Source: an uncultured Planctomycetales bacterium
GTDB taxonomy: Bacteria > 4484-113 > JAFGCY01
Assembly (NCBI GenBank): GCA_964512635.1
Contig: CAZEJB010000014.1
Span: 15,704-79,703 of the forward strand
Direction of reading: 5' to 3'
DNA: 64,000 nucleotides
The notes beneath the pieces are model-generated. The model searched no databases and was not told the origin of the DNA. It saw only the letters and a list, made by a program, of their open reading frames with translations. The position numbers and the translations under genes are program-made. This document shows positions 3,721 through 61,363 of the stretch, piece by piece; position 1 is the first letter of the stretch; the number at the start of each line of letters is the position of its first letter.

Positions 3721-4312
3721 CAGTTCCTCCTTGGAGAGCAGCAGTCGGCCACTTGGTATGCCGGCCTGCCGTGACACGGGATAAAGCCTAGCATGTGCGG
3801 ACCCGTTGCGGCGTCTGCGCCGAGGCGCGCGCTGCCCGCGGGCAGCGTTCAACAAGCTCACAGACGGGCCGGCCGGCGCAGTGGTTACCGGACAGCCCCG
3901 CTTCAGGGGCCTACAGCAGCCTCCAAAGCGTCCGAGAACGCGCATGCAGGGATAGAGCCGCGCGGGGCAGGGGAGGTAACGGGCCAGTGCGCGGACGATC
4001 CGTCCGCGTTTGTGTATTTTCCGGGAGTGCCGGGCCAGGCCCGGCATTTTTACCGGAACGCCGACCCGCCGCGCTTGCATCTCTTCCCGGAGCGCCGGTC
4101 GACCGACCGGCTTCCTGTCCCCCACGGCCGGCTGCAAGCCGGGCTCTTGCCCTGGGGCGCCAGCCATAGGCTGGCGTCCTCTCCGGCTGTTACAATCCCC
4201 GCAGATGTCCACTGCCCCGCAAAACCGGCAGCACAGCTCCGCAGGCCGCGCCGCGCCACGTCCGGTGGCACCGGCTTGCAACCGGTGGGTTTTCGCGGCT
4301 GCGCCGCGTGCT

Positions 4313-4425
4313 GGAGCGCCGGCTTCAGCCGGCATCTCCTGGGGAGCGCAGACTTCAGCCGGCATCTGCTGGGGAGCGCAGACTTCAGCCGGCATCTGCT
4401 GGGGAGCGCAGACTTTAGTCTGCAT
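4313..4425. repeat. Tandem of four GGAG-type REP-like palindromes (about 30-bp period)
   Basis: GGAGCGCCGGCTTCAGCCGGCAT, 2x GGAGCGCAGACTTCAGCCGGCAT, GGAGCGCAGACTTTAGTCTGCAT. Relatives at about 25155 and 27847-27902. Confidence 0.8.
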
Positions 4426-4486
4426 CTTCAAGCAGCGCGGACATCTTGCCCGCGTCGCCCGCTCGCGCGGATCGCGTAGCCGGCCG

Positions 4487-13659: not shown

Positions 13660-14277
13660 CTAAAGCGTAACCAACACGGCCCGGCAGGGCGATGCCTCGG
13701 CACCGCCGATCTTCAGCGGCAGGCAGTGCAGTTCATAGCGCCCGGGCTTGACCTGCCGCAGATCGACATCCTCCAGGATCAGCACGTTGAAGCTGCTCAG
13801 CAGCCGGTGGACCGGAAAGTCCTCGTCGTGGCCCCGCTCGATGGAGAGGTAGTCAATCCCCACCAGCGCGGCGCCGCGGTCCAGCAGCAGCTGCGCGGTA
13901 TCCAGGCTGACATAGGCGTGGTGCTCAATGTAGCTGTCGCGCTGCAGCTCGCCGTTGAGGGTCTTGAACAGCACGGCATCGCCTTCCATGATCTGCAGAT
14001 CATCCAGCGCCTTCGGCCCGATCACGTCAATCGTGTCCACCTCCACTACGTGGGCCGTCAGCACAAAGCGCTCCAGCGGAATCTGGTCGATACTCGGCCC
14101 GTCTTCGATGAAGTGCGCCGGGGCGTCGATGTGCGTTCCAAGGTGCAGGCTGGCGCTGATCTTTGAGAGCATGTAGCCCTGGTCAACCACCATGGCGACT
14201 GCTTCAAGTTCGGTCTCTGGATCTCCGGGATAGTCGATTGTGTCGAGGCCAATGGTACGCGTGATGTCAATGAGCAT
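13660..14277 (-). CDS. Cyclase / kynurenine formamidase (KynB-like) family, copy 1
   Basis: HLGTHIDAPAHF, VGIDYLS and H..LL...ILE motifs. Confidence 0.9.
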   Translation of the reverse strand: MLIDITRTIGLDTIDYPGDPETELEAVAMVVDQGYMLSKISASLHLGTHIDAPAHFIEDGPSIDQIPLERFVLTAHVVEVDTIDVIGPKALDDLQIMEGDAVLFKTLNGELQRDSYIEHHAYVSLDTAQLLLDRGAALVGIDYLSIERGHDEDFPVHRLLSSFNVLILEDVDLRQVKPGRYELHCLPLKIGGAEASPCRAVLVTL

Positions 14278-14361: not shown

Positions 14362-14985
14362 CTAGCCCTGGATCGTCATCAGCACGGCACGGCAAGGAGC
14401 CGCCTCGCCGCGTGCAACCCTAAGCGGAAAGCACAGTAGACGGTATTTCCCAGGGCTGACATGGCTCAAGTCGACGTCTTCAAGCAGCAGTATCCCTGCG
14501 CCCAGCAAGGCCCGATGAACCGGGTAGCCCTCACCACTGGCGCGTTCGATGGTTATGTAGTCCATCCCGACTATGCCGACCTGCAGTTCGATCAGCCGCC
14601 GGGCAGTTTCGATGGGAATATGGGCGTGGCGCTCAACAAAGCCTCCGCGGTCTAGCTCGCCGTTGACAGTCTTGAACAGCACTGCCTCGCCAGGACGAAC
14701 CTGCACGCCATCCAGAATCTCGGGCGGGATGGAACTGAGGGTCATCAATTCGATCACATGACATAGCGGAGTGAAGCTGTCCGGGGCGTACTGGTCGATG
14801 CTCTTGCCGCCGGAGATGAAGTGCGAAGGGGCGTCAAGATGAGTCCCGGCGTGCAGGGTCATTGTGACCTGAGTTAGCTTAAAGCCGTCAAGCTGAATGT
14901 TGGCCAGGGCTGTGAAAGCCGTCGCCGGATCACCGGGGTAAGGCATATCATCCAGACCGATAGTGCGCGAAATGTCGATGAGCAT
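14362..14985 (-). CDS. Cyclase / kynurenine formamidase family, copy 2
   Basis: HAGTHLDAPSHF and VGMDY motifs; tandem paralog of copy 1. Confidence 0.9.
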   Translation of the reverse strand: MLIDISRTIGLDDMPYPGDPATAFTALANIQLDGFKLTQVTMTLHAGTHLDAPSHFISGGKSIDQYAPDSFTPLCHVIELMTLSSIPPEILDGVQVRPGEAVLFKTVNGELDRGGFVERHAHIPIETARRLIELQVGIVGMDYITIERASGEGYPVHRALLGAGILLLEDVDLSHVSPGKYRLLCFPLRVARGEAAPCRAVLMTIQG

Positions 14986-17549: not shown

Positions 17550-17800
17550 TAGCGGGGGATTGTCCCCGTGCGAATTTAGCCATTTAGCTGATTGCTGCTC
17601 TGTAATAGATCAAAACAGGACGCAGAGATGCAGAGGACGCTGAGTTTCGCAGAGAAGAATCCTTGATGATTCCTGGGATTCCGTCGTAGCTCGATCCGGG
17701 CTCTGCGTTCTCTGTGTCTCTGCGTCATGTGTTTGTTTTCGAAGACGGGCGGGGACAAGCCCACGCCCCTATCCGGAAGGCGGGTCAAGACCCGCCACTA
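17550..17800. repeat. GTAG-REPs plus an inverted pair of 9-bp arrays
   Basis: GACGCAGAG-type units at about 17618-17654 and complementary CTCTGCGT units at about 17700-17727. REP hairpins at about 17550, 17750 and 17780. Confidence 0.65.
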
Positions 17801-20700: not shown

Positions 20701-20961
20701 GGAATGATCCTCCTCGAATGTGCCGGCCGCGGGCCGAGGGGGCAGCCCGGGCTCGTTCGGGCGGGATTTTAGCAGGCGGAATCGGGCGCTGGCCGCGCGG
20801 CGGCAGGCTATAATGACCCTCCCGCGCCCGGGGCAAAAACGGCGCGGCGGAAGCGGACAAATGCGATAGGCGCGCCCGGCGCGGATGCCGGGTAGACTTA
20901 GGTCAGGGCAGGCCGTCAGGGCCGGCCGGAGGGTTGGGCGTAGCCCAGAGTGGAGAGGAAC

Positions 20962-23900
20962 TTGTCCGCGTTTGTCCATCTGCATAATCACAGTGAGTAC
21001 TCGCTGCTTGACGGCATTGCGCGCGTCGGCGACATGGCTGCACGCCTCAAGGCGCTGGAATACGACGCCTATGCACTGACCGACCACGGCGTCATGTATG
21101 GCGCCCTCGAATTCTATCTGGGCATGCAGGCCGCCGGGATCAAGCCGATCATCGGCTGCGAGGTCTATGTCGCCAGCCGTAAGCTGACGGATAAGGACAG
21201 CCAGCTTGACCGCAAGAGCTGGCATTGCGTACTGCTGGCTCAGAACGAGACGGGCTACATCAACCTGATGCGTCTGACCTCGATCGCGCACCGCTTTGGC
21301 TATTACTACAAGCCGCGGGTCGACGTCGAGGCGATCCGGGCGCACAGCGAGGGCATCATCTGCCTCACCGCCTGCCCCAACGGCGTGGTCGCCGGTCCCT
21401 TTCATGGAAAGGCGATGGGGGACGAGGGCCACGAGTCCGAGAGCCGCGCGTCGCAAAGCCAGGGGCCAGGCAGCGGGCTGGTCGGCGGCGGGCTTGATGG
21501 CGCCGACAACGAATGCGAGGCTGGCGGGGTTACGGCGGCACACGAGGCCGCGGCACGCCGCGCGCTCGAAACCTATCTCGAAATCTTCACACCCGAGCGC
21601 TTGTTCCTGGAGATCCAGAACCACGGCATGGACATGGAACGGGCCTACAGCCCCTGGGCCGCGGATATGGCCCAACGCTACGGTCTGCGCCTGGTCGCGA
21701 CCAACGACTGCCACTATGTGGCCAAGGATGATGCCCGGGCCCACGATATCTGCCTGTGCCTGCGCGACAAGAAGCTGCTCAGCGACGAGGACCGCCTGCG
21801 CTACAGCGGGCCGGAGTATTACATCAAGACCCAGGCGGAGATGGCCGAGCTGTTCGGCGCCTATCCGCAGGCACTTGCCAATACCAGGGCTGTCGCTGAC
21901 CTGTGCAACCTGAGTCTTGACCTCAAGCGGGTCTACTTCCCGCAGATGGAAGTGCCGATCGTAGGGGCGAGTCCTGACTCGCCATCTTCTGCCGTAGGGG
22001 TGGGGCTTGTCCCTACCCGTGATGGCGGTGCCGAAGACGGGCGGGATCAAGCCCAAGCCCCTCAAGTCGGAACGGAAGATGGGCGGACACAAGGTCCGCC
22101 CCTACAGGAAACCACCACCGATCAGGCCGCGCAGGATGCCTGGCTGCGCCATCTGGTCCACGAGGGTGCGATCCGGCGCTATGGCAGCATCAGCTCCGAG
22201 CTGCAGGAACGAATTGACTATGAACTTGGCGTGATCATCCCCAAGGGTTTTACGACCTACTTCCTGATCTGCCACGACTTTTGCGACTTCGCCCGCAGCA
22301 AGGGCATCCCGGTCGGCCCCGGCCGTGGTTCCGCCGCCGGATCGGTGGTCGCCTATTGCCTTGAGATCACCGACCTGGACCCGATCAAGTACGGCCTGTA
22401 CTTCGAGCGCTTCCTCAACCCGGAGCGCATCGAGCTGCCGGACGCGGACATCGATTTCTGCTACCGCCGGCGCGATGAGGTGATCGAGCACGTCAAGAAC
22501 AAGTACGGTGCGGACCGGGTTGCGATGATCATCACCTACAGCCGCCTGAAGGCCCGCGCGGTGATCAAGGCGGTCGGCCGCACCAAGGGCATCGCCTTCC
22601 AGTACACCGATAAGGTGACCAAGGAGATCAACGGCCTCAACCCGACCATCGACGAGGCCATTGAAGGCAGCAAGGTGCTGCAGGAGATGATCCGCTCGGA
22701 CAAGGAAATCGCCGAGCTGGTCGAGGATGCCAAAAAGCTGGAGGGAATCGCGGCCTACCAGTCCGTGCACGCGGCGGGTATCGTCATCGCCCCCAGCGAG
22801 ATCAGCAACTACGTCCCGGTCCAGCCGATCAAAGACAGTGATCTGCTGGTGACCCAGTACAGCATGGACTATGTCCCCAAGGCTGGTCTGGTTAAGTTCG
22901 ATTTCCTCGGCCTGCGTAACCTGACGATGATTGAGGACACGGCGCAGTACATCCGCCGGTATGTCGACCCTAGCTTCGACGCCCGCTTTGTCCCTGAAGA
23001 CGACCCTGAGACCTACGCCATGCTGCAGCGCGGCGACAACTACGGCGTGTTCCAGTTTGAAGCGCCGCAGGTGCGCCGGATGCTGATCGACGGCCGGCCG
23101 GAGAACGTGATCGACCTCGCGGCGATCAACGCGGCCAACCGTCCCGGTCCGCTGCAGAGCGGCGGTACCGCCCAGTACCTTGAGGCCCGCAAGGCCGGCA
23201 AGCAGAGCCAGGCGCGCTTCAAGAGCATCGCGACTATCCTTGAAAGCACCGGCGGCGTGCTGCTGTTCCAGGAACAGGTGCTGGAGATCGCCAAGCAGCT
23301 CGGCGGCTTCAGCCTCGGCGAAGCGGACCTGCTGCGCAAGGCGATGGGCAAGAAGAACATGGAAGTCATGCTGGCCCAGAAGGAGAAGTTCCTGGCCGGC
23401 GCCAAGCGCATTGCCGACGAGGGCGGTGCCAGGATCCCCACCCAGGAACTGGAAGACATCTGGCAGATGATGGAGACCTTCGCGGGCTATGGATTTAACA
23501 AGGCCCACTCGGTCTGCTATGCCTGGATTGCCTTCCAGACGGCTTACCTGAAGTGCCATTATCCGCACTATTTCATGTGTGCGATGCTCAACAGCTACCT
23601 CGGCAATGCGGCCAAGCTGGCGCAGATTCTGGCGCAGTGCCGGCGGATGAAGATCCAGGTGCTGCCGCCGAGTGTTAATGACGGCGAGCTGGAGTTTACG
23701 CCGACCGCCACCACGGGGATGGGCGAGATCGGCTCGATCATCTTTGGCCTTGGCGGTATAAAGGGCCTGGGCTCTGCGGCGGTCGATGTGATCCTGGCCG
23801 AGCGCCAGCGCGGCGGTGCATTTGGTGACCTGACGGACTTCTATAAGCGCACGAAGAGCAGCGCGCTGAATAAGAAGGTGCTGCAGAGCCTGGCCTGCGC

Positions 23901-25113
23901 CGGCGCCTTTGACTGCCTCGAGCCGCAGCGCAGCAAGCTGATCCAGCGCCTCGACGATATTGATGTCTTCCTGCGCGGGCCGGAAAAGCAGTTCTCGATG
24001 TTTGACGATTTCAACGCCTCAAGCGAGAACGATAGTGTGCTGCCCAGCAAGGAAGTCACGCGTATCGACATCGCGATGCTGGAGAAGGAAGCCATTGGCC
24101 TCTTCCTCACCGAACATCCCTACGCCGACCACCCGATGTTCTTTGACGACCGCTATGTCCAGCTGGAGCGCCTGCAGGAACTGGTCAACGAAAACCCGGC
24201 ATTCTGGCAGGAACGCCCGCTGCCGGCCAAGGGAATTGTCGGACTGCTGACCAATGTGACGATCCGCATGGCCAATACCAGCAACAAGCCTTTCGCCAAG
24301 GCACGGCTTGAAGATCCGGAACGCGGCGTCGAGCTGGTCATCTGGCCGCGCACACTGGAAGCCGCCCGCGACCTGGTTACTGAAAACAACCCGGTGATTG
24401 TCTGGGGCAAGGTCCAGACGCCGGATGTTGCGGCTAGCGCCGAGCAGGGCGACGAGAGCGAAGCTTTTGAGGCGATCGAGATCATCGTCGAAAAGGTCGA
24501 GCAGTACATCCCGCCACCAGGTGGGATTACCCCACGCGGCGACCGGGAAGAGCGCAGCGCAGCACCCCGCGAGACAACGTCCGCCGCGCGAAATCCCAGC
24601 CGGCTGGCCGATCTGACGGCCAGCGACCTGGCTGCGGCTGAGGCGGTAATGCAGATATCGGATAACGCTGCAGCGGGGGCCAGTCCGGCGCCCGTCCCTG
24701 AGAGCAATCAGGACCACTTGCCGTCCTCGCAGACGCGGCTGCGGCCTGTCCTGCGCCGTGTTGATGCAGACTCGGCAAGCTTCGAAAGCGCCGATGCCGC
24801 TCAGGAAGGAAGTTCATCGCCGTCGCCGGGCCAGTCCGCCGAGGCCGCCGATGAACTGGGCAAGGGTCTTGGCATGATCACCTGGTCTGTCGACCTTAGC
24901 CAGGCCGATGCCGCCGCGCTGAAACTGCTGGCGAATACCCTTGAGCGCACCGAAGGTGAGCAGGAGGTCCGCATGCTGCTAAAGGATGTCGGCGGACAGC
25001 TGCGCCAGATCCGCGTGGGCCAGCGCTTCTTCATCGACGCCCAGCAGGCCGAGGCCATCGAACAGCAGTTCGGCTTCCTGGAACGCATACAGCGCGGCCA
25101 GCCCCAGGCCTGA
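20962..25113 (+). CDS. dnaE: DNA polymerase III alpha subunit with several in-frame insertions
   Basis: FVHLHNHSEYSLLDG, TDHG, GRGSAAGS, PDADIDF, HAAG, KFDFLGL and FNKAH, plus an OB-fold. TTG start after GAGAGGA. Confidence 0.96.
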   Translation: MSAFVHLHNHSEYSLLDGIARVGDMAARLKALEYDAYALTDHGVMYGALEFYLGMQAAGIKPIIGCEVYVASRKLTDKDSQLDRKSWHCVLLAQNETGYINLMRLTSIAHRFGYYYKPRVDVEAIRAHSEGIICLTACPNGVVAGPFHGKAMGDEGHESESRASQSQGPGSGLVGGGLDGADNECEAGGVTAAHEAAARRALETYLEIFTPERLFLEIQNHGMDMERAYSPWAADMAQRYGLRLVATNDCHYVAKDDARAHDICLCLRDKKLLSDEDRLRYSGPEYYIKTQAEMAELFGAYPQALANTRAVADLCNLSLDLKRVYFPQMEVPIVGASPDSPSSAVGVGLVPTRDGGAEDGRDQAQAPQVGTEDGRTQGPPLQETTTDQAAQDAWLRHLVHEGAIRRYGSISSELQERIDYELGVIIPKGFTTYFLICHDFCDFARSKGIPVGPGRGSAAGSVVAYCLEITDLDPIKYGLYFERFLNPERIELPDADIDFCYRRRDEVIEHVKNKYGADRVAMIITYSRLKARAVIKAVGRTKGIAFQYTDKVTKEINGLNPTIDEAIEGSKVLQEMIRSDKEIAELVEDAKKLEGIAAYQSVHAAGIVIAPSEISNYVPVQPIKDSDLLVTQYSMDYVPKAGLVKFDFLGLRNLTMIEDTAQYIRRYVDPSFDARFVPEDDPETYAMLQRGDNYGVFQFEAPQVRRMLIDGRPENVIDLAAINAANRPGPLQSGGTAQYLEARKAGKQSQARFKSIATILESTGGVLLFQEQVLEIAKQLGGFSLGEADLLRKAMGKKNMEVMLAQKEKFLAGAKRIADEGGARIPTQELEDIWQMMETFAGYGFNKAHSVCYAWIAFQTAYLKCHYPHYFMCAMLNSYLGNAAKLAQILAQCRRMKIQVLPPSVNDGELEFTPTATTGMGEIGSIIFGLGGIKGLGSAAVDVILAERQRGGAFGDLTDFYKRTKSSALNKKVLQSLACAGAFDCLEPQRSKLIQRLDDIDVFLRGPEKQFSMFDDFNASSENDSVLPSKEVTRIDIAMLEKEAIGLFLTEHPYADHPMFFDDRYVQLERLQELVNENPAFWQERPLPAKGIVGLLTNVTIRMANTSNKPFAKARLEDPERGVELVIWPRTLEAARDLVTENNPVIVWGKVQTPDVAASAEQGDESEAFEAIEIIVEKVEQYIPPPGGITPRGDREERSAAPRETTSAARNPSRLADLTASDLAAAEAVMQISDNAAAGASPAPVPESNQDHLPSSQTRLRPVLRRVDADSASFESADAAQEGSSSPSPGQSAEAADELGKGLGMITWSVDLSQADAAALKLLANTLERTEGEQEVRMLLKDVGGQLRQIRVGQRFFIDAQQAEAIEQQFGFLERIQRGQPQA
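21961..22105. repeat. Four GTAG-type REPs (two forward, two reverse) inside the dnaE coding sequence
   Basis: GTAGGGGCGAGTCCTGACTCGCC (21961), GTAGGGGTGGGGCTTGTCCCTACCC (21994), a degenerate unit at about 22039, and GGGCGGACACAAGGTCCGCCCCTAC (22081). Confidence 0.85.
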
Positions 25114-25147
25114 GCCCAGGACTGACCGCGCCTCTCGCTATGGGACG
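25035..25147 (+). repeat. 113-bp direct repeat, copy 1 (dnaE 3' end, stop codon and downstream bases)
   Basis: Matches 25895-26006 except for one substitution and one indel. Confidence 0.92.
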
Positions 25148-25371
25148 CTGTCGGAACGCCGGCTTTAGCCGGCATTCTTCCCTGTATCTCGCAGCTTGCT
25201 GCAGTCCGATCCAACGCAGAGGCGCGGAGAACGCAGAGGACCGCAGAGCTAAGCATTTGCAGCATGCTAAGACAGGCAGGAAACAGCTGGAGCAGAGGCT
25301 GGAACCCGAACTCTTGTGCCACCTCGCGATATCATTTACGGTGCAGCGCGGAGTCACTTACAGTGAATGAA

Positions 25372-25851
25372 ATGCCCAAGTCGGAGCAAAACCTGGCTAG
25401 GCTGTTGAAGTCGCTTGGTCTTGTCGTGGCGGCTTGCTCAATGTGTTTTGTTTTGGCTGAGTGCGGAAGTGCAATCTATTGGTCCCGGCCGCGAATCACG
25501 TCGATCCATAGGGTGGGTCAGGCGATTGAGGTTCACACCCAGGCATCAGCGCGTGAGCCAAAACATAGGATCACCTCTATTTACTTGGTGCTGCCCACCT
25601 CGAAGTTGAGATTGTCAGCAGAGTTTGAAAGTGTTTCAACAATTGACCATGAGCTGAGGTCCCAAGGCAGGATTATCACTGTCGCCCATCAACCAGTAAA
25701 TGGTTCCGGCGGCATGTTCGTGCTAAGCCTGCCTGAGGGGGAGCTATCGGCTGGCGAACAAGCCAAGCTGGTGATTGTTAGCATTATTGACGGTCCTTTC
25801 TCACGACAGTTAGTCAGGGATCGTATTGTGCGGCTCAAAGGCAGGATGTAA
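25372..25851 (+). CDS. Low-GC hypothetical membrane or exported protein between the direct repeats
   Basis: N-terminal hydrophobic segment; composition differs from the flanks. Confidence 0.55.
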   Translation: MPKSEQNLARLLKSLGLVVAACSMCFVLAECGSAIYWSRPRITSIHRVGQAIEVHTQASAREPKHRITSIYLVLPTSKLRLSAEFESVSTIDHELRSQGRIITVAHQPVNGSGGMFVLSLPEGELSAGEQAKLVIVSIIDGPFSRQLVRDRIVRLKGRM

Positions 25852-25894
25852 CCGCCAGGTATGGGCCACGGAAGGGGACGCCCGCGCGACAAAA

Positions 25895-26006
25895 CGACGT
25901 CCAGCAGGCCGAGGCCATCGAACAGCAGTTCGGCTTCCTGGAACGCATACAGCGCGGCCAGCCCCAGGCCTGAGCCCGGACTGACCGCGCCTCTCGCTAT
26001 GGGACG
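25895..26006 (+). repeat. 112-bp direct repeat, copy 2 (duplicated dnaE 3' end)
   Basis: See copy 1. Confidence 0.92.
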
Positions 26007-26013
26007 AGCTTAG

Positions 26014-27666
26014 TTAGATGTCTCCGCCGATGCCTTCGTCATGACCTCCGGGGTCGTCGTCGCCGGGATCATCATCACCCGGATCGTCATCACCTGGGTC
26101 GTCGTCACCTGGATCGTCATCACCTGGATCGTCATCACCTGGGTCGTCATCGCCGGGATCATCGACGCCAGGATCGTCATCGCCCGGATCGTCGTCACCC
26201 GGATCATCCACGCCAGGGTCGTCGTCGCCCGGATCGTCATCGCCGGGATCGTCCTTCAGGGTATCCGGGTCGAAGTGCTTGCCCTTGGGTGCACTGAAGT
26301 ACCACGCCGGGCTGGGCTCGGGGCCGGTCGGGCTGTTGATCCAGTCCACCCAGGCTTGAAAGCCGCTGTAGACGTTGAAGATCGACTCGCCCTCCAGCGG
26401 CCAGGCAAAGGTTGCCGGCACGATGAAGCCCAGCGGCACGCCCTTAGCGTCCACCGGGTCGCCGGGCTTCTGCCAGAGGCCCAGGCGGTACTCAGCGGCT
26501 TCTCCGGGCTTGACCAGCAGCTCAGGCTTGTACGGCAGCGGGGTATAGCTGCCCTGGGCCAGCGGCGGGTTGAAAGTCAGGGTTACGATGGCATAGTCGC
26601 CGGCGACCGGCGTAGTGCCCGCCTTGACGTTAGCGCCCCAGCCACCGGGGCTGGAGGGCAGCGCCTCAGCGGTGGGCGCGAAGACCGGCAGGCTGGTTCC
26701 GTCTATGCTGGTCCAGACGCGCTGGTCGAAGTGGCGCTGGTCGTTGGTATGCACCGCGTCGCCATTGTCATAGAACTGGTCGACCGTGGCAAAAACCCTG
26801 CTGCCGGGGAAGGCCCCGCCAATGTTCAGCTGCCAGTTGCTGGCATAGCCCGCGCCGCGCGCCAGGGCCTTGACCAGCAGGTTAATCTGCACCAGGCGGC
26901 CCTGCTTGTCGCGCAATTCTTCTGCGCGCAGCGAGCCGACATAGTCATTGAAGTCATAGTCGCTGCCGCCGTCCTTGACGTCCTCCCAGACCATCTGGGC
27001 CTGGCCGGCGTCGCTGCCCTGGGGATAGACCAGCGGGTCGGCGGTCGGCGTGGCGCTGAGGGCAAAGTCGAGGCTGAAGAAGTCGCCGGGCAGCAGCGGG
27101 CTGGCCGAGCCGTCCATGTTAAAGGGCAGCTGATAGCTGAAGACCGCCGTGTACTCACCTGTCGAGGAATGCTCGACGTCCCGCTCGACATAGCTCAGGC
27201 CGGCGCCGCGCACGACCCAGAAGCGGTCCAGCACGGTGCCGGCGGCCGCCTCATAGCAGACGTGCAGGTCGACCATGTCGCCGCTGCTGAAGGATCCGTT
27301 AGCCTCCCCGGGGACGGCTGCCTCGCCGTGGGCGCTGATGGCCATCCAGAGAAACTTGAAGCTCTCTCCGGCGGCCAGGGCCGAGCCGCGCCGCAGCGGC
27401 TTGAAGCTGACGGCTGCGCTGGCCGGGGCAAGCTGATATGCGCCGGTGCTGCCAGCAGCCTGAGTTGCCGCTTGCAGTGCGCTGGTTCCATGGCTGAGCT
27501 GCAGTCCGGTCTGGAATTTCAGGTTCAGCGCGGTCGAGCCATCCCCCGGCTTGGGGTTCTTGGGGATGTTGATCGGGGCGCCGTTATAGCCCCCGCACGA
27601 GGTCAGCAATAACACCAGGGCGGCCAGGGCGAGCAGCGCCGGCCGCGAAGCTGATTTGGGAAACAA
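26014..27666 (-). CDS. Lipoprotein with a LruC/DUF4842-like domain and an acidic DDPG-repeat tail
   Basis: LTSC lipobox, WED...DYDFND motif, P..F.WPLEG..I..VY..F..W. TTG start after GGAGG. Confidence 0.75.
   Translation of the reverse strand: MFPKSASRPALLALAALVLLLTSCGGYNGAPINIPKNPKPGDGSTALNLKFQTGLQLSHGTSALQAATQAAGSTGAYQLAPASAAVSFKPLRRGSALAAGESFKFLWMAISAHGEAAVPGEANGSFSSGDMVDLHVCYEAAAGTVLDRFWVVRGAGLSYVERDVEHSSTGEYTAVFSYQLPFNMDGSASPLLPGDFFSLDFALSATPTADPLVYPQGSDAGQAQMVWEDVKDGGSDYDFNDYVGSLRAEELRDKQGRLVQINLLVKALARGAGYASNWQLNIGGAFPGSRVFATVDQFYDNGDAVHTNDQRHFDQRVWTSIDGTSLPVFAPTAEALPSSPGGWGANVKAGTTPVAGDYAIVTLTFNPPLAQGSYTPLPYKPELLVKPGEAAEYRLGLWQKPGDPVDAKGVPLGFIVPATFAWPLEGESIFNVYSGFQAWVDWINSPTGPEPSPAWYFSAPKGKHFDPDTLKDDPGDDDPGDDDPGVDDPGDDDPGDDDPGVDDPGDDDPGDDDPGDDDPGDDDPGDDDPGDDDPGDDDPGGHDEGIGGDI
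26048..26253 (-). repeat. 15-bp coding tandem repeat, 14 x (D/V)DDPG
   Basis: Counted from the translated ORF. Confidence 0.9.
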
Positions 27667-28188
27667 GATCCACCTCCATGTGGCTGTGCCCAACACGGGC
27701 GCACGGGGCAAGCATAACCGCCCAGGCGCGTGCTCGGGCTAAAGGCGGGTTAACACCGCGTACAGCTTGGCCGGACGCTTTAAGCAAAGTGCAACCGCCC
27801 GCGTTGAGCGCTGCGCATAGCCTGTAACCCCGCACGGCATTTTTATGGAGCGCTGGGACTGGCCCGGCATCTTCGCTGGGGAGCGCAGACTTTAGACTGC
27901 ATCTCTCATTCGAGCAGCCTGGAACTTCGCTGCTATCCAAATCAAATCCAACAGGAGACGCAAAGACCCTGAGGATATGGAGGTCGTCGAGCCAGTCAGG
28001 CTGAAGTTCATGTCGACATTCCTGCACTCCGTACAGCGCAGCCGAGCAGCCCTCATTAGTCGCTGTGACTCAGTGTCTCCTGTTTGCTTTTGGATTTGCT
28101 CTGCGGCACCGCGGCTCTTTGTGAATCCCAGCTTTACGCGCCGGGGCACGACGCGCGCAGGGCGCCGCGCTGCTTTTGGGAGAATTGT

Positions 28189-31007: not shown

Positions 31008-31198
31008 GGGTGGAGGATTATATCCGGGCCGGGGCAGCGAACATTCAAATCCAACAGGAGACACAGAGGCGCAGAGAACTTTGAGGGCTGCACGCCTCCG
31101 AAGACCGAAGAGATGAATTTGAGACCTGCTCAGATCGGCAGGGAATTTGGCGCCCTCCATCCTCTCAGTGTCTCGGTGCCTCCTGTTGGTTTTCTTGA

Positions 31199-41177: not shown

Positions 41178-41265
41178 CGCAGCTAGTTATAGATGATGGC
41201 GGATGGCGGATGGCGGATGGCAGAGATGGAGGAATGAGGGTAGGGGCGCACGGCGTGCGCCCGGC

Positions 41266-41688: not shown

Positions 41689-41815
41689 TTTGTGTGAATC
41701 AACTCCTCGAAATCACTCCGCAGCGCAAGCTATACGCCGGGCGCACGCAGTGCGCCCCTACATGTCTTCCCAGCGCCACGTTCCATCTGCCATCTGACAT
41801 TTGCCATCTGCCATT

Positions 41816-44815
41816 CTATGAGACCAGCTCCTTCAGCAACTCCCTCAGACTGAGTTGCGCGCTCGGCTTGACCTGGCTGGGGTCGGAGATGTCGCCAAAG
41901 ACGTCGTCGAAGAGGCCCTGCTTCTCTTTTAACATCTTCAGCAGCTTCTCCTCAACCGTGTTGCGGCACAGCAGGTTGATCACCACCACGCTGCCCTGCT
42001 GGCCCATGCGATGCGCGCGGGCGACGCGCTGCGCCAGCTTGGCCGGGTTAAAGGGCAGGTCGTAGTTGACCACCAGGCTGGCCGCCTGCAGGTTCAGGCC
42101 GGTGCCGCCGGCGTCAGTGCTGATCAGGATACGGCTCTTGCCCTCCTGGAAACGCTCGACCAGCTCGCGGCGGCCCTGGGCATCCACCCCGCCGTGCAGG
42201 AAGGCCGGGGCATAACCCGCAGCCGTCAGCTCGCGCAGCAGGATCTCGCCCATTCGCGTCCACTGGGTGAAGATGATCGCCTGGCGATCCAGCGTGCGGA
42301 TCTCGTCCTCAAGGATTGCGTTCAGCTCCGTGAGCTTCTGGCTTTCGCGCTGGCTCGGTTCGATCAGCTCCGGCGTGTCACAGACCTCGCGCAGGCGTTG
42401 CAGCAGGGTCATGGCGTTGTTGGTCGCCAGCTTGTCCCACTGCTCCTTGCTGAGCAGCATGCTGGTCTCGCCCTGCAGGTCCTTATAGAATGCGCGCTGG
42501 ATGTCGGTCAGGCTCAGCCAGCGCTCCATCTCGATCAGCGGCGGCAGTTCGGTGAGCGTCTGGGTCTTTGTGCGTCGCAGGGTCAGGGCCGCGATCTTGC
42601 GGCTGACTTCCTCGACCTTCTGATAGCCCTGGATGCCGCCGAAGCGGTCGAGGATCACGTAGCGGTCGCGGAAGGCCAGCGGGTTGGCGCCGAGAGCCCT
42701 GGGCTCGATGAACTTCATGATGGTGTAGAGCTCCATCAGCTGGTTCTCCAGCGGCGTACCGGTCAGGACAAACAGGTAGGGGCTGGCGAGGCTGAAGACC
42801 GACTGCGCGGTCTTGGTACGGAAGTTCTTGACGCGCTGGGCCTCGTCAAGGATCAGGATGTCGGGGGCCAGGGCCTTGAGCTGCTCGATATCGCGGTGGA
42901 CCAGCTCGTAGTTCACGATGTAGAAGAAGGGCATGTCCGCCGGGTCGTGGAAGATGCCGGGGAGCTGCTGCGCCTTGCCGGATGCCCTGGCATCCGCCTT
43001 GCCGGGCGGGCTGGCCAGGATCTGGTCCAGCAGCGCATCGGCTTCATCGCGCGCGCTGGCCTTCCTGGCCGCACGACCTGCCGGGGCAGGAGGGTCTTTA
43101 GCCTGCTGCGCCGCCGCAGCGCCTGTGGCGCGATCAAAGACTGCCGCCGCCCGATAGATCGATTCCCGCTCGTCCGGCCCGCCGCCAATAACCTCGCAGC
43201 GCAGTCCGGTGAAGCGCTGGATCTCGGACTGCCACTGGTACTTCAGCGAGGCCGGGCAGACAATCAGCGCGCGCTTCAAACCCTGCTTCTGTTTCAGGTA
43301 GAAGGCGGCGGTCATACTCTGCAGGGTTTTGCCGAGGCCCATGTCATCTGCCAGCAGGGCCCGCCGGTTGCTGACCAGAAAGGCCACCCCTTCGCGCTGA
43401 AAGGGGTAGAGCTTGGCTTTCACCGGCGTATCAGAATGGAGCGCGGAGTCTTCGGTGGGGCGGCCGGGCCGCTCAGAATGGAGCGCGTCTTCGGTGGGGC
43501 GGCCCTCAGTGGCCGCCTTCTTCTTATTCTCTGGCTTTGGCAGTCCCCACCACCAAACCCACTTATAGCCCTGTTCATTCGGCCAGCGCTTGTGAGGATT
43601 ATTCAAGATGTACTGCGCTTTCTCGAGAAGTTCGTCATCGTCTCGCATTATCCTATCGAGATACTCATCTTGCCAAAGGGACCCCACATAGCCTAACTCC
43701 TTTTGTGCAGTGTGGGCCGTAAATGATTTCCAGGAATGGACAACGTCCTCAAGGTAGTGCCCGGGCATAGGTTGCATGAGAACATGAACATGGTCGTCCA
43801 TCACGACGTAAGCAAAGAGGTGGTAACGCTGAGTGTCAAAGTGATGAATGGCACTGGCCACCAAATCACGGGCAGCTGGGCTCAGAGTTTGGTGCTTTTT
43901 GTTCAGCCTCCAGGTTACAAAGTAAGTTGAGTTACTTAGACGCCAGTGGGGAAGTCGGTGCCGATATTGAGAAAAATCGTCTTTGGCAGCTGGGATGGCG
44001 GCCAGTGACGGCCGCCCCACCGAAGAGTCCCGCGCTTCATCCTCGGCGCCCTCGCCGGCGATCCACTGTTCAAGCTCCTCCGCCAGCGTCTTTAGTCCCT
44101 CATAGTGATCCAGCACGGGCTTCACTGTTGGGTGTATGCGCACCTGCGCGCCGGCGACGTGCAGCCTGGCGACCAGTTCGGGGCAGTCCAGGGGCTGGCG
44201 CAGGGTATGCACCTGGTCGATATGCGCGGCAAGAATGCTGTGCAGTTCCGGCAACAGGAACTGCTCGGCGTGATAGGCCTGCACCTGGCGGAAGAAGGAA
44301 ATCGACTCTTCGAAACTGATCGCCCGGGCGCCGAACTCCTTCAGGGCCAGAGTGAAGCCCTTGTCGAAGCGCAGCTGGCCCTTGGCCCGGCGCAGCAGCT
44401 TCTCCAGGCGCCAGACATCAAAGTTGTCCCGCAGCGCTCCTTCCGTGCAGTACTCGCGCAGCAGGTTCTGCAACGGCCTGGCCGCCTCATGCGCCGGTGC
44501 GCTGACCAGGAAGCGCACTGACTGCGGCCCTTCGATGCCACGCTGCTTAGCACCGCTGAAGAGCACCACATAGCGCTGCATATGCGCGTCATAGGCCTTC
44601 TGCAGCGCTTCCCAGTCAGTGCCGGCAAAGAAACGGTCCGCCCGCGCGTCGCCGAGTTCTGCCAGCAGACTGGGGTAGGCCGAGTAGTCGCTGAGCGCAA
44701 AGCCGAAGCTGAAGTACTGGTTGATGATCCGGCGTATGTGCGGCGGCAGGCGCTGCTTGTCACCGCTGAAGCGGATCTCATCGCCGTTCTTGCCACCAAC
44801 TACCAGACGCGCCAC
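41816..44815 (-). CDS. SNF2-family helicase/ATPase with an internal RAYT transposase domain
   Basis: YPFQREG, LADDMGLGKT, LDEAQRVKN, LTGTPLEN, IFTQW and GG.GLNLQ.A..V...D.P.NPA...QR.ARAHRMGQ. Confidence 0.92.
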   Translation of the reverse strand: MARLVVGGKNGDEIRFSGDKQRLPPHIRRIINQYFSFGFALSDYSAYPSLLAELGDARADRFFAGTDWEALQKAYDAHMQRYVVLFSGAKQRGIEGPQSVRFLVSAPAHEAARPLQNLLREYCTEGALRDNFDVWRLEKLLRRAKGQLRFDKGFTLALKEFGARAISFEESISFFRQVQAYHAEQFLLPELHSILAAHIDQVHTLRQPLDCPELVARLHVAGAQVRIHPTVKPVLDHYEGLKTLAEELEQWIAGEGAEDEARDSSVGRPSLAAIPAAKDDFSQYRHRLPHWRLSNSTYFVTWRLNKKHQTLSPAARDLVASAIHHFDTQRYHLFAYVVMDDHVHVLMQPMPGHYLEDVVHSWKSFTAHTAQKELGYVGSLWQDEYLDRIMRDDDELLEKAQYILNNPHKRWPNEQGYKWVWWWGLPKPENKKKAATEGRPTEDALHSERPGRPTEDSALHSDTPVKAKLYPFQREGVAFLVSNRRALLADDMGLGKTLQSMTAAFYLKQKQGLKRALIVCPASLKYQWQSEIQRFTGLRCEVIGGGPDERESIYRAAAVFDRATGAAAAQQAKDPPAPAGRAARKASARDEADALLDQILASPPGKADARASGKAQQLPGIFHDPADMPFFYIVNYELVHRDIEQLKALAPDILILDEAQRVKNFRTKTAQSVFSLASPYLFVLTGTPLENQLMELYTIMKFIEPRALGANPLAFRDRYVILDRFGGIQGYQKVEEVSRKIAALTLRRTKTQTLTELPPLIEMERWLSLTDIQRAFYKDLQGETSMLLSKEQWDKLATNNAMTLLQRLREVCDTPELIEPSQRESQKLTELNAILEDEIRTLDRQAIIFTQWTRMGEILLRELTAAGYAPAFLHGGVDAQGRRELVERFQEGKSRILISTDAGGTGLNLQAASLVVNYDLPFNPAKLAQRVARAHRMGQQGSVVVINLLCRNTVEEKLLKMLKEKQGLFDDVFGDISDPSQVKPSAQLSLRELLKELVS
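43431..44020 (-). mobile_element. RAYT domain with inverted GTGG-type REPs, inserted in frame in the SNF2 gene
   Basis: RHRLPHW, TYFVTWRL, VMDDHVH (HUH), WKSFTA, LWQDEY.DRI.R and QYILNNP. REPs at 43494-43517 and 43997-44020. Confidence 0.9.
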
Positions 44816-47278: not shown

Positions 47279-47725
47279 GGAGCGCGGACCCATGGTCCGT
47301 ATCTTCTGCGCTGCGACAAGCCAATGTGGTGCGGGGATCAACCACAAAGATCACAAAGGTTCACGAAGAACACGAAGAGTAGGAATAGAGCCTGGAAGCT
47401 GCCTCTGAGCTGTCATTCTGATGTAGCCAAGGGGGCTGGCAGAGTCTTAGCCTTAGTGCTCTTGGTGCTGCTTGGTGGGCCTGATGTTGAGAAAAGCCAT
47501 GTCCAGCTGTTCTGCTTTGCGTTCTTCGCGAGCTTTACGCTGTGATCTTTGTATGGCAGGTCCGGGACGGCCGAACTGGGGTAGGGGCGCACAGAGTGCG
47601 CCCGGCATTTGGCTCGCTGCCCAGAGCAGCGAATGACAATACCAATCCAATTCGCGGCCCCGGTAGGGGCCGGGCGCACGCGGTGCGCCCCTACAAGGCA
47701 AAAACGGACCATGGGTCCGCGCTCC
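47279..47725. repeat. Nested repeat array: a GGAG-REP pair enclosing a 9-bp array pair and a GTAG-REP doublet
   Basis: Outer REPs at 47279 and 47702-47725; 9-mers at about 47342-47376 and 47515-47550; GTAG doublet at 47581-47694. Confidence 0.8.
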
Positions 47726-53717: not shown

Positions 53718-53910
53718 GTAGTGGCCCACTGCGTGCGCCTTGGAGCCTGATCCGTGTAGAGGCGCACTGCGTGCGCCTTTCCTAAATCCTCAGAAGGCGC
53801 ACGCGGTACGCCACTACAAAGACCACGGACACGCCGGTCATTGCGGCAGGAAAAGGGCCGCATTTCTGCGGCCCTTGTATCAATATTCTCCATCTGCCAT
53901 CTGCCATCAG
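53718..53910. repeat. GTAG-REP cluster, terminator hairpin and 7-bp array
   Basis: REPs at 53718, about 53756 and 53795-53817; AAGGGCCGCA..TGCGGCCCTT at about 53853; CCATCTG units at about 53890. Confidence 0.7.
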
Positions 53911-53921
53911 GCGTCTGGCGT

Positions 53922-56003
53922 CTACTCGTCGTCGTCCTTCTTGGCCGTGGCCTGGTGGTGCTTGACGATCTCGGCCTGGACATTGCTCGGCACCTGCTCG
54001 TAGTGGCTGAAGGCCATTTCGTAGTAGCCCTGGCCCTGGGTCATCGAACGCAGGCTGTTGATGTACTGGTACAGCTCGGCCAGCGGCACCTGAGCCACCA
54101 GCACGCGCATGTCACCGCTCTGCTCCATGCCGCTGACACGGCCGCGGCGGGTGTTGAGGTCGCCCATGATGTCGCCCATATAGTGCTCAGGCGTATATAT
54201 GGTGACATTGTATACAGGCTCCAGAAGGATCGGCCCGGCCTTCTCGAAGGCCAGCTTGAAGCCCATGCGGCCGGCCATCTTGAAGGACAGTTCGTCGGAG
54301 TCGACGCTGTGGGCGCTGCCGAAGAAGACTGTCGCCCGCAGGTCGATTACCCGGCTGCCGGACAGCGGACCGTGCTCCATCGTCTCGATGATGCCCTTTT
54401 CCACGGCGGGGATGAAGCGGTTGGGAATCACGCCGCCGACCACGGCATCAACAAACTCAAACCCCGTGCCGCGCTCCAGAGCTTCAAGCCGGATATGCGC
54501 GTCGCCAAACTTGCCGCGGCCGCCGGTCTGCTTCTTAAACTTGCCCTGGGCCTCGGCCTTGCTGGTGATCGTCTCGCGGTAGGCGATCCGCGGCTTCTTC
54601 CACTGCACCTGAACGTGGTTCTTGTTCTTGACATAGTTGGCGGCTACATCAATATGCAGCGGCCCCATGCCATAGACCAGCATTTCCTTGGTCTCTTCTT
54701 CCTGATGCAGCTTGAAGGTCGGGTCCATGTGGCTGTAGACATGCAGCGCCGAGATGACCTTCTCAAGGTCGTTCTTGTCCTCGACGTTAACCGCCTCATA
54801 GGAGACCGCGCTGGGGTAGTGGATCTCAGGGTAGATGATCGCTGACTCTTTCAGGCACAGCGTATCGCCAAGGCGCGTGCCCTTCAGCTTCACCGTTGCC
54901 ACCAGATCGCCGGCACTGGCGTTGGGCACATCCTCACGCGTCTTGCCGCGCATGACAAGCAGGGTAGAGATCTTCTCCTGCTCACCCGTGCGCGGGTTGT
55001 AAACCGTATCGCCGGGCTTGATGCTGCCGCTCAGGACGCGCATCCACAGCACTTCACCAAGCTGGCCCTCCAGGGTCAGCTTGAAGATCTGAGCGCTGAA
55101 GGGAGCGGCATCACTAAGCGGGCGCGTGTCTTCGCCGCCGTTGGGCTTCTGGCCGGTCATGCTGCCGTGGAAGCTGGGGTCGGGCAGACTGTGGTGGATC
55201 AGCTCCAGCAGACGGCCCATGCCGATGTTCTGCTTGGCGCTGCCGCCGACCACCGGGCAGATCGCGCCCTTCTTCACGCCTTCCAGCAGGGTGTGCAGCA
55301 GCTCTTCCTCACCGATGGCCTCGTCAAGCATGTAGCGCTCCATCAGCGCGTCATCCAGCTCAACGATTGACTCAATCAGCGAGGTACGGGCAGCTTCAAT
55401 TGCCTCCGACATCTCTGCCGGCGGATCGCTTTCCACAACCTGGCTGCCCTGGCGGCTGTAGACCTTGCGGTTCAGCACGTTGACCACGGACTTCAGGTTG
55501 GACTGCTCGCCGACCGGGATAACAAAAGGCACAACGCTCTTGCCGAAGGCCGCTCGCAGCTGCTCCAGCACGCGGCTGTAGCTGCTGTTTTCCTTGTCGA
55601 GCTGGCTGATGAAGAAGGCGCGGGCCACGTTCATCTGCTCGGCATAGCGCCAGGCCTGGCGGGTCTGCGGTTCGATGCCAGCCACGCCGTTAACCAGGAT
55701 CACCGCACCCTCAACCACCGACAGGGCGCTGATCGCCTCGCCGATGAAGTCGAGATATCCCGGGCAGTCCACGACGTTGTAATGCAGGCCGTTGTAGTTG
55801 AAAGGGAGTACTGTGCTGTAGATCGAGTAGCGCCGCTTGAGTTCTTCGGGGTGATAGTCGGAAACAGTGTTGCCCTCTTCGATGGTGCCCATACGCGTGG
55901 TCACACCCGCGTAATTGAGCAGCGCCTCGGCGAGGGTTGTCTTGCCGGAGCCACCATGGCCCAGCAGAGCGACATTGCGCTTGTTTGCGACCGGTACCGC
56001 CAT
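53922..56003 (-). CDS. fusA: Elongation factor G-like paralog (EF-G2 type)
   Basis: GHGGSGKTTL, DCPG, and EF-G domains III-V (IAYRETI, KKQTGG.G.FG, P.LLEP). Confidence 0.85.
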   Translation of the reverse strand: MAVPVANKRNVALLGHGGSGKTTLAEALLNYAGVTTRMGTIEEGNTVSDYHPEELKRRYSIYSTVLPFNYNGLHYNVVDCPGYLDFIGEAISALSVVEGAVILVNGVAGIEPQTRQAWRYAEQMNVARAFFISQLDKENSSYSRVLEQLRAAFGKSVVPFVIPVGEQSNLKSVVNVLNRKVYSRQGSQVVESDPPAEMSEAIEAARTSLIESIVELDDALMERYMLDEAIGEEELLHTLLEGVKKGAICPVVGGSAKQNIGMGRLLELIHHSLPDPSFHGSMTGQKPNGGEDTRPLSDAAPFSAQIFKLTLEGQLGEVLWMRVLSGSIKPGDTVYNPRTGEQEKISTLLVMRGKTREDVPNASAGDLVATVKLKGTRLGDTLCLKESAIIYPEIHYPSAVSYEAVNVEDKNDLEKVISALHVYSHMDPTFKLHQEEETKEMLVYGMGPLHIDVAANYVKNKNHVQVQWKKPRIAYRETITSKAEAQGKFKKQTGGRGKFGDAHIRLEALERGTGFEFVDAVVGGVIPNRFIPAVEKGIIETMEHGPLSGSRVIDLRATVFFGSAHSVDSDELSFKMAGRMGFKLAFEKAGPILLEPVYNVTIYTPEHYMGDIMGDLNTRRGRVSGMEQSGDMRVLVAQVPLAELYQYINSLRSMTQGQGYYEMAFSHYEQVPSNVQAEIVKHHQATAKKDDDE

Positions 56004-60283: not shown

Positions 60284-60913
60284 ATGGGACAACTCATCGA
60301 TATTTCACGCCCCATCCAGCCGGAGGTGCTCCTGCATCCCGGCGACCCGCGGCCGATGCTGTCGCGCTATAAGGACATGGCGCGCGGGGATGACTACAAC
60401 CTGACCCAGCTCAGCATGGGCATCCACACGGCGAGCCACTTCGACTTCCCGCAGCACATGGACCCGCATGGCGCGAGCTGCGAGGACATTCCCCTGGAGC
60501 GCTTCATCGTGACCGCGCATGTAGTCGACTGCGGCACGGCGCCGGCGGTCACCCGCGAGCAGCTTGAGTACGTGAAGGTCGAGGCCGGCGATGCGGTTTT
60601 GCTCAAGACCCTCAACGGCGAGTCCTCCCAGGACCGCATGCGCAAACCCTGGGTCCATATCACACCGGAGGCCGCGCAGTGGTGCGTCGACCGCCGGGCC
60701 GGCATCGTCGGCGCGGACTATATCGAAGTCGAAAGCGGCCTCAACGAGGGCAAGTACCCTGTGCACCACACCCTGCTCGGCGCCGGCATCCTGCTGCTCG
60801 AGAACATCGACCTGCGAAAGGTCGCTGCCGGCACCTACCGCCTGTATTGCTTCCCGCTGCTGATACCCGGCTGCGAAGGCAGTCCCTGCCGCGCAGTGCT
60901 TGAAGTCATGTAG
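60284..60913 (+). CDS. Cyclase / kynurenine formamidase family, copy 3
   Basis: HTASHFDFPQH, VGADY and GSPCRA. Confidence 0.88.
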   Translation: MGQLIDISRPIQPEVLLHPGDPRPMLSRYKDMARGDDYNLTQLSMGIHTASHFDFPQHMDPHGASCEDIPLERFIVTAHVVDCGTAPAVTREQLEYVKVEAGDAVLLKTLNGESSQDRMRKPWVHITPEAAQWCVDRRAGIVGADYIEVESGLNEGKYPVHHTLLGAGILLLENIDLRKVAAGTYRLYCFPLLIPGCEGSPCRAVLEVM

Positions 60914-60914
60914 G

Positions 60915-61345
60915 GAAATGGCGGATGAAGGATGAAGGATGACGGATGAAGGATGACGGATGGCGGATGACGGATGGCGAATAGCTGATGGTTGATGGCG
61001 GAGGGCTCATTTCGGAGGACGAATGGCAAATGGCGAAGGGAGAGGCGCGTGGAGCGCACCCGGGCAGGCAGTCTGCGAGCTGCTGGGTCATGAGTAGGGG
61101 CGCACAGAGTGCGCCCGGCCCATCGCGATAGGCTGGATTTGGATGACAAGTTGGCCTTGTATCAAAGCGGAGCTAGTCATTAGCGATCCGAAGCGTTCAA
61201 TATTGTTGCCGGGCGCACTCTGTGCGCCCCTACGCCTCTTCGTTGTGGCTCTGCATAGGGTTACCCGTACACGCTCCACGCGCACCTGTATCCCCATTCG
61301 CGTTCCGCCAATTAGCCATTAGCCATCAGCCATTAACCATTCGCC
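60915..61345. repeat. Inverted 7-bp arrays enclosing a GTAG-REP doublet
   Basis: GATGAAG/GATGACG/GATGGCG units; REPs at 61094 and 61211-61233; CCATTAG/CCATCAG units. Confidence 0.8.
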
Positions 61346-61363
61346 ATCAGCCCTCCGCCATTT

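Follow-up and report, generated by a model that had tools for sequence, protein, structure and literature searches.

A 64,000-nt stretch of contig CAZEJB010000014.1 (positions 15,704 to 79,703; assembly GCA_964512635.1, from an uncultured Planctomycetales bacterium), referred to here as the window, carries 860 bp of added DNA at the 3' end of dnaE, the gene for the DNA polymerase III alpha subunit. The addition consists of a 747-bp insert with a small foreign gene and one extra 113-bp copy of the dnaE end. This structure belongs to known kinds, being either an insertion accompanied by a long target duplication or a decayed integrative element at a gene 3' end. To our knowledge, dnaE has not been reported as a target of such integration. 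We tentatively favor a Campbell-type crossover at a reused site in the dnaE end, which would have left an element unable to move itself, and we give this reading a probability of about 0.45. Insertion accompanied by a long target duplication is nearly level with it, although we rank it second. The structure is a clean example of a gene with almost no relatives that has come to lie beside an essential gene with no damage done, and wastewater metagenomes show the allele with this insert, the empty one, and one that is filled differently.

Duplication of the dnaE 3' end

The forward-strand open reading frame (ORF) of 1387 amino acids at 20950-25113 is dnaE, since it contains the Pfam domains PHP, DNA_pol3_alpha, DNA_pol3_finger, and HHH_6. 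It is complete up to its stop codon at 25111-25113. The repeat copy used by dnaE, on the left, is 113 bp long (25035-25147, forward strand) and takes in the last 25 full codons with the stop, extending 34 bp past it. The right copy, of 112 bp (25895-26006, forward strand), has no in-frame start and is thus an orphan dnaE 3' fragment. It passes directly into the ancestral downstream sequence, AGCTTAGTTAGATG, as is also seen at the two empty sites described below. An earlier note on this DNA had described a 112-bp duplication of the dnaE end, with about 25 codons and the stop in each copy and 747 bp between them, and the repeat finder gives the same arrangement.

The copies align in two blocks. 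In the first, 25035-25117 matches 25895-25977 over 83 nt, the sole mismatch being C at 25040 and T at 25900; in the second, 25116-25147 matches 25975-26006, offset by a 1-bp indel, as the left copy has one more A, at 25118. A 77-nt exact core of the repeat occurs twice in the 64 kb, while none was expected from 100 shuffles. Across the 113 bp, the copies are 96.5-99% identical, including the 34 noncoding bp, and the edges of the repeat are sharp and fall at places without evident functional meaning. The insert between the copies (25148-25894, forward strand) has a GC content of 0.50-0.575, compared with 0.62-0.69 in both flanks. It has no coverage in relatives with an empty site and is single-copy in the metagenomes that hold it.

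A lineage-specific C-terminal extension of dnaE, of about 200 amino acids, falls within 24214-25147 of the window and within 6001-6945 of L001, a metagenome-assembled genome. The final 95 amino acids of dnaE are identical in a fragment from the Joint Genome Institute (JGI) metagenomes, P0002, and nearly identical in L001. Past the stop codon, 29 of the first 31 bp are conserved with L001, although the neighboring proteins are only 59-71% identical; we have no explanation for this conserved 31-bp motif.

Evidence that the insertion is integrated

Public sequencing runs that hold the region were examined as Logan unitigs (k = 31) aligned to the window. X1 and X2 are bioreactor metagenomes, X3 is an activated-sludge run, and X6 is a wastewater run from another study. 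In X1, the left flank ends at 25092 with a depth of 10.5, and a 55-bp unitig with a depth of 23.7 corresponds to the identical core of the two copies, 25063-25117. A single unitig of 865 bp, 25088-25952, then spans the whole insert and both junctions with no differences from the window at a depth of 8.65, and a 129-bp unitig with a depth of 11.3 joins 25948 to 26076 in the right flank. The same loop is seen in X2, with depths of 24.8, 17.8, and 21.4. Thus, the depth of the insert is 8.65 in X1 and 17.8 in X2, compared with chromosomal depths of 10.5 and 24.8, while the core has about double depth. In X6, where the depth is only about 2, a read-length unitig from 25800 to 25950 crosses from the insert into the right copy with no differences.

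The unitigs also show that the deposited sequence understates the divergence of the copies. In X1 and X2, the left copy linked to the flank has A at 25036 and G at 25062, whereas in the deposited left copy these positions are G and A, the letters of the right copy. The copies consequently differ by three substitutions and one indel in these metagenomes; the one substitution and one indel counted in the earlier note hold for the deposited sequence alone. The right-copy letters at 25036 and 25062 may come from gene conversion between the copies or from a mixed assembly consensus. The earlier note had supposed a recent integration, which is doubtful because the copies differ at four positions in X1 and X2.

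We conclude that the insertion is real and not an assembly artefact, although k = 31 unitigs cannot phase the 55-bp core. The contrary case, which we consider very improbable, is a chromosome with a single copy and a separate 860-bp molecule, circular or other, that shares the 113 bp and has been threaded wrongly into the contig. The unitigs alone are insufficient to exclude this, since their graph does not phase the core, and the right-copy letters in the deposited left copy hint at some mixing of copies. However, the depth of the insert follows that of the chromosome in two samples, with the core at twice that depth, and the same junction appears in the third, unrelated study, X6. The deposited assembly, furthermore, phases the extra A with the start of the insert and its absence with the right flank, as the integrated form predicts. 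A free circle is very unlikely in view of the depths, this phasing, and the fact that nothing on the 860 bp serves replication. The earlier note had named a single copy in reads as the mark of an artefact; the 865-bp unitig of X1 instead spans both junctions, and the core is present at double depth. The ratios of insert to flank depth, 0.82 in X1 and 0.72 in X2, are suggestive of a minority of empty genomes, with which they are compatible.

Alleles of the dnaE end in other strains

Among 185,579 GTDB species genomes, L001 contains the sole relative of the dnaE end, with 59% identity at the dnaE C-terminus. At this locus, the dnaE stop is followed by about 50 bp and then by the stop of the same convergent gene as in the window. 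The segment is present once, without an insert, the gene order is conserved, and both sides align. The convergent gene, which serves as the marker of the ancestral right flank, encodes an LruC-domain/DUF4842 protein (26014-27711, reverse strand; Pfam and NCBIfam matches) that is 71% identical to that of L001. The protein has a (DDPGD)n tail, also present in L001, that is encoded by about 14 tandem 15-bp repeats at 26009-26293, and this region interrupts short-read unitigs. In the scans for relatives of the dnaE end, GTDB yielded this single locus and the JGI metagenomes none; a search with its 299-amino-acid protein sequence gave two fragments.

An empty site is also seen in X3, in a strain closer to the window. 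A 212-bp unitig of this run contains the left copy from 25043 to 25147 with no differences in 105 positions and then continues into AGCTGTTTAGTTAGATGTCTCCGCC, which is the right flank. The insert is uncovered in X3, while dnaE and the right flank are covered. Further upstream, the X3 dnaE differs from that of the window by about 4% (25 of 633 positions); by our own arithmetic, the probability of the 0/105 match by chance is about 0.015. The empty site that the earlier note had proposed to look for in relatives is thus found in both L001 and X3, each with one copy and no insert.

A search for runs with the insert itself gave X1, X2, and X6 only, while the dnaE flank is also present in X3, X4, X5, X8, X10, and X11. 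In X3, X4, X5, and X8, dnaE is present with no insert coverage. The insertion therefore varies between strains.

A third allele is present in X4 and X8. Its 468-bp unitig is identical to the window over 24717-25031. Twelve differences, almost all of them at third codon positions, then fall in 25032-25083, and the remainder up to the dnaE stop has none. Immediately after the stop, the sequence changes to unrelated DNA, GTGGATTGCTATGAACGAAAGAACGCTGCC, of which 70 nt are known. This loose end has no occurrence in the 64-kb window; the DNA past the stop possibly begins a co-directional gene, ATGAACGAAAGA. The repeat in the window has its left edge at 25035, 3 bp away from the first of these differences, at 25032. 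The allele has the signature of prophage e14, since the gene end is replaced by one with a cluster of synonymous changes, after which comes unrelated DNA. It is not simply the orthologous region of a diverged donor, because the conserved 31-bp intergenic motif is missing. The X4/X8 allele looks like a different element at the same site, and no recombinase is seen in the 70 nt of cargo DNA. This is the kind of different cargo at the dnaE end that the earlier note had suggested seeking.

Cargo gene and repeats of the insert

The cargo ORF (25372-25851, forward strand) encodes 159 amino acids from an ATG at 25372. Its frame, the best of the six, is open from 25264 to the stop at 25849-25851, with 25372 as the likely start; the 195 open codons have a probability of about 2e-4 per frame. 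The GC content at third codon positions is 0.57, compared with 0.68-0.90 in 15 host genes, so the codon usage is foreign. This agrees with the low-GC ORF of the earlier note. The N-terminus, as read from the sequence, has charged residues, then LGLVVAA, and then the Cys of a VAAC lipobox-like signal, and it is followed by one Big_5-like immunoglobulin (Ig) domain. The product thus reads as a predicted lipoprotein.

The gene has almost no relatives. A HMMER pass over 1.84e9 representative proteins gave a single match, with E = 2.5e-8, to the repeated Big_5 Ig-like domain of P0004, a surface protein of 3738 amino acids. No homologue was found among 5.8e9 proteins, and no exact gene is on record. 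Plasmids, phages, IMG/VR, and JGI metagenomes gave no match, and there was no family match in Pfam (E up to 10), PHROGs, NCBIfam, or PADLOC, nor any match to a restriction-modification, defense, or phage family. The AlphaFold model from the single sequence had a predicted local distance difference test score of 49, which was too poor, and it was not used for a fold search. No RNA run was found that holds the region, and scans of the junctions for promoters, terminators, and folding gave nothing above shuffled controls.

The first 100 bp or so of the insert differ from the rest in consisting of intergenic repeats of native type: a hairpin like those of repetitive extragenic palindromic (REP) sequences, a spacer, and a GCAGAG/GGAGAC-type arm. 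The hairpin, GCCGGC-TTTA-GCCGGC, lies at about 25153-25180 and resembles 30-bp units at 4308-4427 and 27875-27904; it had been recognized as a REP in the earlier note. The arm, given by the repeat finder at 25213-25247, is one arm of a dispersed inverted-arm family (D11). A repeat is indeed present where a 9-bp array had been described, but it is made up of two 17-nt GCAGAG-type units, 25213-25246. The layout of this repeat start aligns lengthwise with a composite element at 27870-27990, whose partner arm is missing in the insert. Related arms, of 8-9-mers of the GCAGAG/GGAGAC type, are found at 17615-17730, 27942-28090, and 31045-31185, and the 37-bp arm of the insert has a contig depth of 200-300 in every sludge metagenome examined. 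An origin of the whole insert as a REP or a miniature inverted-repeat transposable element (MITE) was ruled out, as only the first 100 bp or so are dispersed repeats.

Comparison with known systems

Two kinds of known system resemble the structure at dnaE. Insertions with long target duplications, described by Nobusato et al. (Gene 2000) and by Furuta, Abe, and Kobayashi (NAR 2010; PMC2853133), consist of foreign DNA without mobility genes between resident duplications of 46-423 bp, and their mechanism is unexplained (PMC2853133). The insertion at dnaE is like these in being a short insert of foreign composition, without mobility genes, between long direct repeats (113 bp here) that overlap a gene 3' end and occur once at the empty site. 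It differs in its cargo, since the published cases come from a screen for restriction-modification genes, whereas here there are an Ig-domain lipoprotein gene and dispersed repeats. Nor is this class characterized by a second allele with its break at almost the same base.

The other kind is the integrative element at the 3' end of a protein-coding gene. Prophage e14 and phage 21 integrate at icd of E. coli (Hill et al. 1989; PMC13626634), where e14 brings its own replacement for the 3' end, marked by a cluster of synonymous changes and with element DNA behind it, and leaves the orphan icdC at its far end (PMC13626634). As at dnaE, the target is a protein-coding housekeeping gene that is kept complete, and an orphan C-terminal fragment lies beyond the element, icdC in the one case and 25895-26006 in the other. 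The synonymous cluster at the gene end in the X4/X8 allele is also of the e14 type. However, e14 is 15 kb long with its own integrase and excisionase, whereas the insert at dnaE is 747 bp with no recombinase, and the two dnaE copies are far more alike than are icd and icdC. Decayed elements that keep their attachment (att) repeats without an integrase are documented (PMC7563491). These include the cis-mobilizable elements (CIMEs) at the fda 3' end in Streptococcus thermophilus and S. salivarius (PMC7563491), which are att-flanked remnants at a housekeeping gene's 3' end that have no recombination or transfer genes and move only with the help of a related element. The structure at dnaE resembles them in these respects. 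The att repeats at fda are 27 bp long, and the repeats at the dnaE end are much longer. CIMEs are recognized, moreover, by att sites shared with a known integrative and conjugative element or integrative and mobilizable element, often in tandem, and none such was found here.

Origin of the insertion

How did the dnaE end come to flank a foreign gene on both sides? In the Campbell-type reading that we favor, the 860 bp would have been added by one reciprocal crossover between the chromosome and a DNA circle on which a copy of the dnaE end was already present. Circle, crossover, and enzyme are all inferred, and the crossover could be made by an integrase or by RecA. It would fall at about codon 1362 of dnaE, a point apparently used more than once in the species. 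The gene would stay complete, and an orphan 3' fragment would be left beyond the insert, like icdC beside icd around e14. What is present today, two att-like repeats, a small foreign lipoprotein gene, and dispersed-repeat DNA with no recombinase, would be a decayed or CIME-like unit. Whichever way it arose, the unit is now passive; recombination between the 113-bp repeats can remove it precisely, and it could be moved only by RecA or by the recombinase of a related element. The direct att-like repeats at both ends and the complete target gene fit Campbell integration, and reuse of the dnaE site is suggested by the two independent structural variants that break within a few bases. The Campbell-type integration of the earlier note is thus upheld as far as the geometry and the intact dnaE go, but a long target duplication fits the anatomy about as well.

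Several observations weigh against the crossover. There is no integrase, serine recombinase, other recombinase, or DDE transposase in the insert or in the 64-kb window, as judged by a Pfam scan of all window ORFs of at least 150 amino acids; the earlier note had also reported no integrase. No element, phage, or plasmid was found that carries the dnaE end or the cargo, and a cognate element was sought in GTDB genomes, JGI metagenomes, IMG/VR, and plasmid and phage collections without result. As neither a cognate integrase nor such an element turned up in any collection, the mobilization in trans of the earlier note finds no support. The dnaE end was also not found in viral contigs. The near-identity of the copies and their sharp edges look like a resident copy rather than the diverged 3' end of an element; the 3' end in X4/X8 is about 14% diverged, compared with 96.5-99% identity between the copies in the window. 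A crossover core strictly shared with X4/X8 is not evident, because the right copy has no similarity to dnaE to the left of 25895, and the X4/X8 breakpoint is at or before the position equivalent to 25031. The X4/X8 cargo, furthermore, is known over 70 nt only.

Insertion accompanied by a long target duplication is a somewhat less probable but serious alternative. Here, linear foreign DNA would be joined to staggered breaks 113 nt apart, or else in the course of break repair or template switching, and fill-in synthesis would double the resident 113 bp. This needs neither a site-specific recombinase nor prior homology, and it would be a one-off event, with later spread or loss by homologous recombination only. 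The insertion agrees with the published operational definition (PMC2853133), in that the direct repeats exceed 30 bp (113/112 bp), the insert is below 20 kb (747 bp), a single repeat copy aligns at the empty site (L001 and X3), and there are no mobility genes in or beside the insert. The near-identical copies, with their noncoding part and their edges without functional meaning, are as expected, as is the absence of differences (0/105) between the left copy and the single copy of X3, and an insert GC content below that of the genome is seen in several published cases (PMC2853133). However, this explanation leaves unexplained why the independent X4/X8 allele should break so near this point in dnaE, no more than 3-20 bp from it, a coincidence that we estimate at a few percent within the 400 bp examined. 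The mechanism of the class has, moreover, never been demonstrated, and the published cases carry restriction-modification genes, whose cutting of DNA is the proposed cause, while the cargo here has none. A two-step origin or a replication error, which we consider improbable, would give the same end product: either a tandem 113-bp duplication with later insertion between the copies, or a template switch at 25147, in which the fork copies 747 bp from elsewhere and re-enters at 25035. The dispersed repeats at the start of the insert are the genome's own and may insert alone, which is in its favor. But no bare tandem duplication is seen in the strains examined, a donor template is absent from the window and from the metagenomes, where the insert has single-copy depth, and two steps are less economical than one.

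The stronger form of the Campbell-type reading is that integrative elements of an undescribed family use the dnaE 3' end as their attachment site and that the 860-bp unit, although without an integrase, is still excised and re-integrated in trans. We regard this as unlikely; were it true, the unit would be among the smallest att-flanked mobile units known, with a previously unreported attB gene. If the dnaE end is a reused attachment site, it would be a new target gene of integrative elements in an uncultured lineage, and the unit would be a natural, very small att-flanked cassette. If, on the other hand, a long target duplication is the correct explanation, this poorly understood class extends past restriction-modification cargo, which would weaken the idea that a cargo nuclease is the cause. 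On either reading, the consequences are local, and the understanding of these systems is unchanged.

Neighboring genes and other repeats

The neighbors in the window are housekeeping genes: a tricorn-like protease, sigma factors, glnA, dnaE, RNase P RNA, ribF, smpB, an opp transporter, lpxC, and fusA. That lpxC is among them suggests a diderm cell, with two membranes. RNase P RNA is the only Rfam match, and no tRNA or transfer-messenger RNA target is present in the window. An insertion sequence, DNA transposon, or MITE was ruled out as the source of the insert, which has no terminal inverted repeats, is flanked by a duplication of 113 bp (not <15 bp), and is single-copy.

The only HUH-type domain in the window is 16 kb from the insert, in an ORF of 999 amino acids (41816-44815, reverse strand) that fuses Y1_Tnp (IS200-like HUH) to an SNF2-family helicase. 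This ORF is flanked by REP hairpins, GTAGGGGCGCAC..GTGCGCCCGGC (41225-41265 and 41736-41769), that recur at 47566-47702 and 61079-61241. The predicted fusion protein may be a REP-associated enzyme. Three paralogous genes for putative cyclases (PF04199) are found at 13660-14277 and 14362-14985 on the reverse strand, these two being adjacent, and at 60284-60913 on the forward strand.

Further short repeats are dispersed through the window. The 30-bp REP-like units that resemble the hairpin of the insert form a tandem array of four at 4308-4427 (GGAGCGCAGACTTCAGCCGGCATCT...), and a lone fifth unit lies at 27875-27904. A 7-bp unit (GATGGCG, with its complement) forms arrays at 41195-41224, 41776-41809, 53890-53923, 60917-61023, and 61316-61363, often as inverted pairs around short intergenic stretches.

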